Shown in pieces: positions 19,531-21,050 of a DNA stretch of 64,000 nt (position 1 is the first letter of the stretch; each line of letters starts with the position of its first letter). This stretch comes from Klebsiella phage KP13-16. The DNA lies in sequence record OP617741.1. One strand, given 5' to 3'. Under the pieces are notes generated by a model that was not told the origin of the DNA, made no database searches, and was given only the letters and a program-made list of their open reading frames with translations. The position numbers were made by a program, and so were the translations under genes.

Positions 19531-20790
19531 ATGATGATCGGATTTAAAACTAAACTTAGAGCTAATAATGCTCAGAGTAGTCTTCTTACACACTGGAGTA
19601 ATGCTCGTAGATATGCATATAACTATGCTTTAGCTTTAAGTCTTATTGAACAAGAAACTTTACCTGAAGGTGAAAAATGGAAGTTATCTCAAATAAATGA
19701 ATATGATAAATATTTTAATCAAGGTAAAATAGAATTAGGTAAAAAACGAGGCACTACCTCTGGAGAGATTATAGGTTCAGGCATTCATACTTGGTTACGA
19801 GGAATTCCAGGTAGTGTGTGTCAAGAAGCCATTAAATCTGATTTAAAATTTGCATGGCAACGTTGTTTTAAAAAGCTTGGGGGCAGACCAAAATTTCAGT
19901 CTAAGTATCGTGTTAAGAGTTTTAAACTTTCAAATAAGGACTTAAAAAAAGATAAGAATTTAAATGAAGATGGTTCTTACATCAATCACAACAGATTAGG
20001 TAAATTTAAGCTTGGGGATAAAATTCCTAAGAAAATTTTATCTGGAAAACTTATGAATACTACCTTCAGCAAATCTGGTAAAGATTGGTATGTAGCTTTT
20101 ATTTTTGAGATCCCTGATGAAGATTATTTTGAAATTTCAAAAACAAGAACAATGTGTGTTGGTGTTGACTTAGGTGTAGCTCAACATGCGACTTGTTATG
20201 ATGAGGTTTCAGATACAGCATGGCATGAAGATTACCCGAAAGAAAATTTGAAAGTTGTTGAAGATCGTATTAGGATCTTGCAAAGAAAAATGTCAAAATG
20301 CAAAAAAGGAAGCTTGCGATATAAAAAATTATCTGGTATGATTGCACAAAGGAAATCAAAACAAGGCAATATTCGACAGGATGCTTGTCACAAACTGACT
20401 AAAAAGCTTTCTACAAAAGCATACAAGATTGTTTTAGAAGACTTAAAAGTTAGCAATATGATAAAATCTGCAAAAGGTTCAGCAGATGAGCCAGGTAAGA
20501 ATGTCAAAGCTAAATCTGGTCTTAATAGGGAAATTTTGAATATGAGTTTGCATTCTGTTAAAATGCAATTAGGGTATAAAACAATTCGTTATGGCAGTGA
20601 GCTTATATTGGTTAATCCTGCATATACATCACAAACTTGTTCTTGTTGTGGACATGTTTCAAAGGAAAATAGGAAAACACAAGCTAAATTCATTTGTGTT
20701 GAATGTGGTCACAGTGATAATGCCGATATCAATGCTGCAAAAAATATTCTCAAAAAAGGTTTAAATTCTGCAAATAGTAGTGTAGAATAA
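19531..20790 (+). CDS. tnpB: TnpB (IS200/IS605-family OrfB) RNA-guided nuclease homologue
   Basis: 419 aa; RuvC-I-like MCVGVDLGV, C-terminal zinc finger CSCCGHVS...CVECGHSDNADINAAKNI; no tnpA nearby; RBS GGAG lies inside the degenerate third CRISPR repeat. Confidence 0.8.
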   Translation: MMIGFKTKLRANNAQSSLLTHWSNARRYAYNYALALSLIEQETLPEGEKWKLSQINEYDKYFNQGKIELGKKRGTTSGEIIGSGIHTWLRGIPGSVCQEAIKSDLKFAWQRCFKKLGGRPKFQSKYRVKSFKLSNKDLKKDKNLNEDGSYINHNRLGKFKLGDKIPKKILSGKLMNTTFSKSGKDWYVAFIFEIPDEDYFEISKTRTMCVGVDLGVAQHATCYDEVSDTAWHEDYPKENLKVVEDRIRILQRKMSKCKKGSLRYKKLSGMIAQRKSKQGNIRQDACHKLTKKLSTKAYKIVLEDLKVSNMIKSAKGSADEPGKNVKAKSGLNREILNMSLHSVKMQLGYKTIRYGSELILVNPAYTSQTCSCCGHVSKENRKTQAKFICVECGHSDNADINAAKNILKKGLNSANSSVE

Positions 20791-21050
20791 GAATAGCTGG
20801 TAACTTAATTACTCTACCTGTGGTTGACGGGGATGTGATGCTCGGTGAGGTCTTTCATTAGAAGCACCTATGAAACGAGAAGCTGGTTTCTTCAAGTATA
20901 AACCCAGCACCGATTTATCGGCATTAAAACCGTGTATCCCGCGCAAGCATTGGTGAACTTTCGTGTTCAAAACTGGTGTATTCCGCGAGAGCGGTGATGA
21001 ACTGGACAATTCACGATGTGCACTATTTAATGTAGTGTATCCTATTGGAG
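20640..21050 (+). ncRNA. putative omega-RNA / IS605 right-end structured region overlapping the 3' end of tnpB
   Basis: Sharp local rise in G+C and multiple inverted repeats just after the tnpB stop; position matches where TnpB omega-RNAs are encoded. Confidence 0.35.

Follow-up and report, generated by a model that had tools for sequence, protein, structure and literature searches.

A tnpB gene of Klebsiella phage KP13-16 associated with omega-RNA-type scaffolds and type I-E CRISPR mini-arrays: a probable transposon-CRISPR hybrid

In Klebsiella phage KP13-16 (OP617741.1) a tnpB gene lies between two structured RNA scaffolds, each accompanied by a mini-array of type I-E CRISPR repeats (short palindromic repeats, clustered and regularly interspaced), and this module is the subject of the present analysis. 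The stretch that was analysed, referred to below as the window, is 64,000 nucleotides (nt) long and belongs to a large enterobacterial myovirus; its nearest relative in GenBank is Klebsiella phage vB_KpM_FBKp34 (Stephanstirmvirinae; FBKp34 below), which is 96.7% identical over the flanks of the module. The module sits within a cluster of 19-20 phage tRNA genes, and the neighbouring open reading frames (ORFs) encode a phage protein of unknown function, Rz/Rz1 spanins and an HNH endonuclease. Its features are collected in Table 1. No cas genes (cas3, Cascade, cas6e or cas1-cas2) were found in the module or its phage neighbourhoods and no tnpA-like ORF was found in the module or adjoining it, the latter in agreement with an earlier reading of the letters alone (the sequence-only reading), which had described a TnpB lacking a TnpA.

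Table 1. Features of the tnpB module in the order in which they occur in the window
Feature	Position	Strand	Description
Promoter, sigma-70-type	19107-19135	+	TTGACT-17-TAAAGT; consensus scan; annotated as promoter in FBKp34
Upstream omega-RNA-type scaffold	19176-19283	+	covariance model 97.8 bits at 19176-19270
I-E leader-like segment	19312-19365	+	GGTAGATT ~55 nt upstream, TTTAGA junction to repeat 1
Upstream mini-array	19366-19516	+	three repeats, two spacers, read from the sequence
R1	19366-19394	+	29 nt, GTGTTCCCCACATGCGTGGGGATAAACCG
S1	19395-19427	+	33 nt
R2	19428-19455	+	1-nt deletion in stem, tail intact
S2	19456-19487	+	32 nt
R3	19488-19516	+	degenerate; hairpin and tail gone
tnpB ribosome-binding site and spacer region	19517-19530	+	GGAG 19517-19520 abutting degenerate R3, 10 nt before ATG
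tnpB ORF	19531-20790	+	419 amino acids; TnpB-fold RNA-guided nuclease (predicted); RuvC D213/E303/D399 and C4 zinc finger
Downstream omega-RNA-type scaffold	20813-20924	+	covariance model 90 bits at 20813-20909
Decayed downstream I-E-type mini-array	20932-21056	+	array of the second unit
R1'	20932-20960	+	hairpin broken; 15-nt gap after
R2'	20976-21004	+	downstream array
Downstream spacer	21005-21034	+	between R2' and R3'
R3'	21035-21056	+	degenerate; gives GGAGG ribosome-binding site for a 61-amino-acid ORF starting TTG 21057

The 419-amino-acid (aa) product of tnpB matches the Pfam families OrfB_IS605, Cas12f1-like_TNB and HTH_OrfB_IS605, scores 223 bits against the NCBIfam model guided_TnpB and has a PHROG match as well; the PADLOC profile Cas12u4 aligns with it over the full length at 231 bits. 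The three RuvC residues and the four cysteines of the CxxC...CxxC motif are kept across the family alignment, and with its RuvC triad intact the nuclease is predicted to be catalytically intact. An AlphaFold model of the protein (pLDDT, predicted local distance difference test, 89.6) found its top structural matches in the TnpB proteins of ISFba1 and ISDra2, with template modelling (TM) scores of 0.74-0.84. Among solved structures the best sequence match was RdCas12n (PDB 9j09; E = 6e-55), limited to residues 149-411, and LaTranC (PDB 9jfo/9jfq) was distant, matching in the C-terminal part only (E = 2e-18). [quoted passage not shown]

The promoter in Table 1 is the sole conserved promoter-like site and precedes every upstream unit in the relatives described below. 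It would drive the upstream guide-RNA unit and probably tnpB too, and array and tnpB appear to form one transcription unit, as had been proposed from the letters alone. The upstream scaffold that follows is laid out as helix 1 (H1) with the loop GGTT (19185-19188), H2, H3, a conserved TGAA, H4 and H5 (19271-19283). In the downstream scaffold, which is a direct repeat of 19176-19214 with 72% identity, H1 has CC/GG instead of GG/CC, the loop is again GGTT (20822-20825), and H2-H4 and H5 (20910-20924) follow. The 260 nt 3' of the tnpB stop are 44% G+C, compared with 32% in the ORF and 37% in the window, and this composition, together with the covariance score in Table 1, upholds the suggestion of the sequence-only reading that the 3' region resembles an omega-RNA. 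RNAalifold, applied to an alignment of 13 distinct units, returned four helices (H1-H4) with compensatory changes in 14 of 19 pairs. A structure drawn manually on 17 units was concordant with it: 87.4% of cells were paired, compared with 36-52% when the partners were slid, a control that is somewhat flattering because the structure was built from the same 17 sequences. Two-sided changes occurred in 23 of the 36 pairs of this structure, and none of 500 shuffles matched the observed values.

A covariance model of the scaffold core detected exactly two copies in the window, both flanking tnpB; as both belong to the training set, the informative part of this result is the absence of further copies. 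At distant loci on which it had not been trained, the model found matches directly 3' of tnpB genes, and it also recognised both classical omega-RNAs of a 374-aa TnpB in FBKp34, which lack a leader and repeat. These comparisons indicate that the structured segment is a genuine scaffold of the omega-RNA class. Rfam searches at gathering and E-value thresholds returned tRNAs and noise only; neither the scaffold nor the 3' region matched a family there. A repeat search of the sequence for a long anti-repeat gave no extended complementarity to the CRISPR repeat, only the direct repeat between the two scaffolds, and a 12-nt complementarity between S1 and the scaffold was judged to be due to chance. 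We also rejected as a gene a 46-aa ORF starting with GTG (19183-19323, + strand); it overlies helices with compensatory changes and is read as RNA. In Salmonella phage KE23 the corresponding ORF over the upstream scaffold is annotated as a hypothetical coding sequence (L002 3031-3171; loci outside the window are designated by L numbers). In L003 and L004 the upstream scaffold (L003 2600-2862) contains an insertion of about 40 nt that duplicates helix 4, one copy being of the type found in L180 and the other of the window type.

Between the upstream scaffold and tnpB lies a CRISPR unit of type I-E. When 19290-19430 was compared by BLASTN with complete E. coli genomes, 19312-19409 aligned with the chromosomal CRISPR leader and first repeat in 1319 genomes. 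The segment shares with the E. coli leader the motif GGTAGATT and the junction of TTTAGA with GTGTTCCCC, and both motifs recur in the upstream and downstream units of relatives. The arrays have the 29-nt palindromic repeat (GTGTTCCCC...GGGGATAAACCG), the spacers of about 32 nt and the leader of an I-E array, and the sequence-only reading was accordingly right to call the repeats Cas6e-type. Within the window the repeat pattern is confined to the array (2 matches, with 0.09 expected). At the 3' side of tnpB the window contains a second, decayed copy of the scaffold and array unit; in comparison with the closest relative, L193, its leader and first repeat have been deleted. Each unit is therefore made up of an omega scaffold followed by a leader and an array that are both of type I-E. 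The degenerate terminal repeats (19488-19530 and 21035-21059) have been reused as ribosome-binding sites; the same arrangement is found in relatives, where 'attggagaatta..ATG' recurs. The upstream scaffold, the decayed 3' array, and the covariation and spacer targets presented below had escaped the sequence-only reading.

To place the module in an evolutionary context we assembled some 20 loci, comprising the closest database proteins (58-96% identity), matches to DNA patterns and distant members of the clade (39-49%). All fetched relatives with enough flanking sequence, from 39 to 96% identity, possess at least one scaffold plus I-E-like repeat unit, on the strand of the gene and on one or both of its sides. 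These relatives span at least five phage insertion contexts and the genomes of Endozoicomonas and Photobacterium. In phage KE23, for example, which is of another subfamily (Vequintavirinae), the promoter recurs and is accompanied by a conserved non-coding stretch of about 190 nt, three I-E-like repeats and a TnpB that is 78% identical, all of them between an RNA ligase gene and an endolysin gene. Members of the Vequintavirinae type have the upstream unit only, and a terminator follows tnpB. L010 and L032 carry a lone repeat-like hairpin, as in classical omega-RNA. Of 160 TnpB loci at greater distance (27-39% identity), only 4 have arrays whose period is 61 nt. A protein-pattern scan of IMG/VR with a single protein as the query gave no match, and with an alignment it gave distant TnpBs and one partial member only; a scan of a genome collection yielded one member (L097), and the scaffold DNA pattern yielded four further loci. 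As judged from these sequences, the association of array and TnpB is evolutionarily conserved, as in a type V or TranC-like system. The sequence-only reading had taken array and nuclease for unrelated neighbours and had held a type V-like system to be improbable, though not excluded by eye; neither view withstands the finding that members of the clade consistently carry this repeat type, which that reading had itself named as the observation that would count against it.

Some loci outside or at the edge of this clade deserve mention. In other TnpB lineages (29-30% identity; IMG/VR contigs L027/L028, at 3854-4290, 5610-5707 and 6022-6119, and L045, at 3850-4700) a downstream scaffold is accompanied by the leader-like motif GGTAGATT and by I-E-like repeats (GTTTCCCCCGTGAGTGCGGGGATAGACCG), and L027 has two additional orphan scaffold copies. 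TnpBs with I-E-like arrays may therefore be more widespread than the present clade. In L191, the contig of a 43%-identical relative, some 2.3 kb separate the TnpB gene from the end of a Cas3-like gene (PF22590, 1-710) upstream of it, and the module may adjoin a type I locus in a bacterium. In Photobacterium damselae (L189, 1-6600) the relative is located between a 1276-aa protein with helix-turn-helix (HTH) and N6/N4 methyltransferase domains and a hipBA-like toxin-antitoxin pair, surroundings that resemble a defence island.

TnpB and Cas12 enzymes need a pseudoknot next to the guide. In the module, the loop of helix 1 is complementary to repeat positions 25-28, which lie at -5 to -2 from the spacer. 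The loop and repeat tail are GGTT:AACC in most units, AGTT:AACT in unit A of L012, GAAA:TTTC in the upstream unit of L009, GATT:AATC in L013 and CCAT:ATGG in L010; the pair GGTC:GACC of Photobacterium was added by eye. When the 17 units were scored with Photobacterium excluded, 97.1% of cells were paired, all four pairs exhibited two-sided changes and none of 500 shuffles reached the score. The tail is retained wherever a repeat precedes a spacer and is lost only in terminal repeats, which are now ribosome-binding sites. The position of the pairing is that of the pseudoknot in TnpB and Cas12 enzymes: in the solved structure of the ISDra2 TnpB complex, -5 to -3 pair with -103 to -105, and in RdCas12n, -4 to -2 pair with -168 to -170. 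The covariation therefore points to a pairing of scaffold with repeat like that of type V and TranC-like systems. At L009 the GAAA:TTTC pair goes with the repeat ATCTTCCCCACATACGTGGGGGTGTTTCC, which is a Klebsiella repeat of the I-E* type (PMC8847753); the downstream array of this locus has an E. coli-type repeat.

These data bear on another account of the locus, namely that an IS605-type TnpB, standing alone and bringing a 3' omega-RNA of its own, happened to insert beside an unrelated mini-array. In favour of such an accident, the protein has a plain TnpB fold and the site is an insertion hotspot, occupied by another TnpB in FBKp34 and close to an HNH gene. However, the order of scaffold, leader, array and gene recurs in unrelated contexts, down to 39% identity, an omega-type scaffold precedes the upstream array too, and scaffold and repeat co-vary. 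We consider a chance adjacency extremely improbable.

The arrays turn over. L193 occupies the same site in the tRNA region as the module of the window, and its protein is 95% identical and its DNA 93% identical over the aligning segments, but the two spacers of its upstream array are wholly unlike those of the window. L177 and L180 end alike, in one trailer spacer and one terminal degenerate repeat, but none of their leader-proximal spacers is shared. L008 agrees with these two only in the terminal degenerate repeat and the sequence beyond it; it has just one spacer, which is not among theirs. Between L006 and L179 the difference amounts to one spacer, and L005 equals L003 plus one leader-proximal unit. 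A conserved trailer end and a variable leader end are the signature of polarised CRISPR acquisition.

Protospacers were sought in E. coli genomes and plasmids. S1 of the window matched, at 33 of 33 positions, an E. coli island beside tRNA-Thr/proA (5' flank GAG), and a spacer of L005 matched the same island (31/32, AAG) 147 nt from the S1 site. For S2 the match was to a K. pneumoniae island (32/32, GGG), and for the downstream spacer of the window (26/30, TGG) it was to the same Klebsiella site, the two protospacers overlapping on opposite strands (L184 4976-5032). Spacers of L006 (30/32, AGG) and L177 (29/32, AAG) both matched a second E. coli tRNA-Thr island, and the two upstream spacers of L193 (30/32, AAG, and 29/32, ATG) matched one integrase-like gene of an island remnant. 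The remaining matches were to plasmids: an L180 spacer to a 6.5-kb Klebsiella plasmid (32/32, AAG), and the trailer spacer shared by L177 and L180, through the 28 nt proximal to the protospacer-adjacent motif (PAM), to the origin region, of ColE1 type, in over 3400 small plasmids (AAG). We rejected the idea that two E. coli matches 210 bp apart marked a host CRISPR array, as their flanks are not repeats. Spacers from different phages pair up within 150-800 bp in the same islands, and this clustering looks like the result of a hot spot or of primed-type acquisition.

When the spacers were compared with the phages in GenBank no targets were found, the single match being to the flanking DNA of L003, and we have therefore rejected the targeting of competing sequenced phages as their main role. 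The L003 match is of a different kind. This module ends at its last repeat, and the next 32 nt are the empty site present in phages FKP3 and KP13-26, preceded by AAG. In those two phages, which are without the module, homology resumes at the repeat end, with ...AAAGAAAG followed by GCATTG. Throughout L003-L005 homology to the empty-site phages restarts directly after the last repeat; in the window the terminal repeat is degenerate. With the L003 empty site included, eleven 5' flanks are available: AAG occurs six times and AGG, GAG, ATG, GGG and TGG once each. In E. coli I-E systems AAG is the acquisition PAM, AAG, AGG, ATG and GAG are proficient in interference, and the G of the PAM becomes the last base of the repeat. 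Nine of the eleven flanks belong to this set of four, and all eleven end in G.

Three of the target islands (L186, NZ_CP021722 4027-4041 kb; L187, NZ_CP029747 684-698 kb; L188, NZ_CP074582 84-96 kb) are 12-13 kb long and syntenic. Genes for an integrase and a major capsid protein occur in each, along with genes for an HTH or DnaD/replication-initiator-like protein and for a large protein of 600-715 aa. Across the three, the proteins are only 23-46% identical, and two of the islands sit at tRNA-Thr next to proA in E. coli. We infer that the islands make up a diverse family of elements resembling phage satellites. Around the Klebsiella island, the 'plasmid' region has genes of chromosomal type (purR, sodB, rnt and gloA).

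The spacers also bear on the notion that the module acts through its RNA as a decoy or regulator, either because repeats like those of RNA anti-CRISPRs (Racr) titrate host Cas6e or Cascade, or because the complex is a nuclease-independent repressor. I-E-like repeats carried by a phage could bind host Cas6e, and solitary-repeat RNA anti-CRISPRs are known in phages (PMC10651486). In contrast to what a decoy would lead one to expect, the 32-nt spacers turn over and match mobile elements exactly, at sites with I-E-type PAMs, and the RuvC triad is intact. This explanation seems to us very unlikely.

As a whole, these results favour the view, which we hold to be probable though by no means secure, that the locus is a phage-borne transposon-CRISPR hybrid in which the omega-RNA of a TnpB has been rebuilt around a leader and array of type I-E. 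The system might work as follows. The phage promoter would transcribe scaffold, leader, array and tnpB on one RNA, with a second unit, decayed in the window, after the gene. TnpB would bind the scaffold, and the AACC tail of the repeat would pair with the GGUU loop of helix 1, so that the pseudoknot next to the guide is restored. The adjoining spacer would then direct RuvC cleavage of DNA with an AAG-like motif on its 5' side. The phage is without adaptation genes of its own; since its arrays agree with the host I-E system in leader, PAM and the lengths of repeat and spacer, host Cas1-Cas2 and integration host factor (IHF) would install new spacers, and host Cas6e may assist in processing. The PAM of Cas12n, the nearest solved homologue, is A-rich and 5' on the non-target strand, so spacers acquired through I-E would be PAM-compatible with the nuclease of the window and directly usable by it. 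The spacers would be aimed at islands with integrase, replication and capsid genes and at small plasmids of the enterobacterial host, and the likely role would be the removal of parasites and competitors during infection. Use of the spacers by TnpB instead of host Cascade, the route of processing and host-dependent acquisition are what we infer from this arrangement, and the arrays may serve both TnpB and host Cascade.

Several considerations weigh against this view. The arrays are fully compatible with host Cascade and Cas6e and might partly or wholly function with the host effector. A leader of about 65 nt and the repeat hairpin separate the core of the scaffold from the strand of the pseudoknot; we know of no characterised omega-RNA with a leader and hairpin at that place. 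The candidate pseudoknot is only 4 bp long, and spacers of 32 nt exceed TnpB guides, which are roughly 16-20 nt. The downstream unit of the window is decayed, and the window's own three protospacers are flanked by GAG, GGG and TGG, not AAG. In the collections searched the majority of spacers found no match, and the satellite status of the islands is based on their gene content only. Finally, many Klebsiella and E. coli hosts have no I-E system or a silent one, so that acquisition dependent on the host would be sporadic.

The first of these points leads to another explanation, that the mini-array serves Cascade-Cas3 of the host against satellites and plasmids and that TnpB is a mere vehicle, which at most homes the cassette into related phages, guided by a terminal spacer equal to its flank. 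Repeats, leader, spacer length and PAM are all canonical for I-E. The right end of L003, where the module stops at its last repeat and the AAG-preceded empty site comes next, has the geometry of TnpB homing, and the module is found at several different phage sites, as such a cassette would be. This explanation nevertheless leaves the covariation of loop and tail unaccounted for, including the switch to an I-E* tail in an upstream unit whose spacers do not match a flank. Nor does it explain why tails are kept before every spacer and lost only in terminal repeats. Members of the Vequintavirinae type, with their upstream unit alone, have no terminal flank guide, and the terminal repeats of the window and L006 are without the Cas6e hairpin, which Cascade would require for the last spacer, yet the last spacer of the window still matches its target at 32 of 32 positions. 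We regard it as rather unlikely that the array serves host Cascade with TnpB as its vehicle. More tentative than the hybrid nature of the locus, and in our estimate slightly more apt to be wrong than right, is the full proposal that a class 2 TnpB effector runs on class 1 I-E memory, with the host writing and processing the spacers and with satellites and plasmids destroyed.

How does this system compare with those already known? Transposon-CRISPR intermediates, named TranC, are reportedly the subject of work by Jin and colleagues in Cell (2025), and the category has been known since that year. TranC reportedly resembles the present system in having an effector of TnpB size near IS605 TnpB together with a CRISPR array, and a guide RNA derived from omega-RNA in which the repeat supplies the pseudoknot strand. 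There are differences too. In the window, array and leader are of type I-E, with 29/32-nt geometry and an AAG PAM; the scaffold is 5' of the leader on the same transcript, with no separate trans-activating CRISPR RNA (tracrRNA) having a long anti-repeat; and units can flank the gene on both sides, in carriers that are mostly large lytic phages. Cas12n (type V-N, V-U4) shares with the protein of the window the insertion SAKGT.E.PGKNV.KSGLNR; its 5' PAM is rich in A and its pseudoknot lies at -4 to -2. Unlike Cas12n, which is 540 aa long, the window protein has 419 aa and a fold nearest that of minimal TnpBs; the tracrRNA of Cas12n overlaps the 3' end of the ORF, whereas the scaffolds of the window start after the stop or upstream of the gene, and the main unit of the window is upstream, with an I-E leader and repeats. 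With a sequence match limited to residues 149-411 and with a different size and scaffold placement, the protein is not a Cas12n.

Fold, RuvC and zinc-finger motifs, scaffold class and pseudoknot geometry are shared with the TnpB-omega-RNA pairs of IS200/IS605 elements (ISDra2, ISFba1), as is the abutting of the right boundary of the L003 module on a guide equal to flanking DNA. In contrast to IS200/IS605 elements, the module is without tnpA and single-copy, relatives occurring once per contig; its guides are stored as a turning-over I-E array, and its spacers match other mobile elements and not its own empty site. Vibrio phage ICP1 uses a type I-F CRISPR-Cas system against the PLE satellite (PMC11656645) and is likewise a lytic phage with an RNA-guided nuclease system (predicted, in the present case) and with spacers that match an integrative satellite-like island of the host. 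ICP1, however, has a complete Cas set including adaptation, whereas the module consists of a single protein of 419 aa with its RNA genes, and cas1/cas2 are absent from it. On plasmids, type IV-A3 systems gain their spacers through the Cas1-Cas2 of a host I-E system (PMC11656645; preprint 10.1101/2023.06.23.546257); as in the present case, a mobile element without an adaptation module has an array compatible with host I-E adaptation. The difference is that the effector of the window is of class 2 TnpB type, not a type IV complex, and that acquisition in trans is our proposal. Racrs differ in that arrays of the window type hold turning-over spacers with exact targets.

Full-text searches of the literature, which did not extend to the first TranC paper or to the supplementary tables on V-U*, yielded no TnpB or Cas12 with an I-E leader and repeats, none dependent on Cas6e or IHF and none in the Vequintavirinae. 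A prior description may therefore exist, and we do not call the system categorically new. It differs from other transposon-CRISPR intermediates in the source of its CRISPR half, for which a class 1 (I-E) leader and array have been captured that stay matched to the repeat variant of the host. In a PNAS 2023 survey, arrays were nearly always downstream of the effector gene, and loci such as the present one may consequently have been filtered out.

The surroundings of the module remain to be described. The sequence-only reading regarded them as a mobile-element hotspot, and the comparison with FBKp34 sustains this. FBKp34 (L001 5625-7340) and a JGI contig (L178) have a different TnpB at the site that matches window 19094-21057. 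The promoter and the initial ~95 nt of the scaffold survive in both (73-75 bits with the covariance model), and the remainder has given way to the gene for the 374-aa classical TnpB mentioned above, which is unrelated (30% identity). This TnpB is flanked by omega-type scaffolds of its own, upstream at 5887-5978 and downstream at 7225-7315; both end in GGAGGATGTCAA, after which comes a guide. At this site one TnpB module seems to have displaced another. An HNH endonuclease ORF (21961-22503, + strand; phrog_14913, E = 3.5e-15) lies between tRNA-Met (21941-22016) and tRNA-Leu (22505-22588). Because these two tRNAs adjoin each other in FBKp34, the HNH gene is a separate small insertion; its true start is probably later than the listed one, which overlaps tRNA-Met. 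Rfam also detected a tRNA at 18145-18216 (+ strand, 43.9 bits) that ARAGORN did not report.

If the locus is the hybrid that we propose, it has implications for the evolution of RNA-guided nucleases. Among the routes considered for the passage from TnpB to Cas12 are the duplication of an omega-RNA segment and the landing of a transposon near an array, the latter being left open in the PNAS 2023 survey. The present lineage appears to be a clear example of that latter route, in which an I-E leader and array were inserted entire into the omega-RNA, the repeat tail took over the pseudoknot strand and scaffold and repeat co-evolved. It would thus be a natural intermediate, in which a transposon nuclease gains adaptive immunity by capturing an array and not by duplicating its omega-RNA. 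The pseudoknot loop would be adapted to the 5' handle that I-E CRISPR RNA (crRNA) has in the local host, and if a 4-bp pairing with the handle suffices in trans, the complex could also read crRNAs from host arrays. In practical terms, the system suggests a compact nuclease with an AAG-like PAM whose guides could be supplied as standard I-E arrays. For the phages themselves, these results suggest that adaptive targeting may be owned in about 1.9 kb by leaving adaptation to the host. They also suggest a previously unrecognised conflict between large enterobacterial myoviruses and islands that carry integrase and capsid genes.

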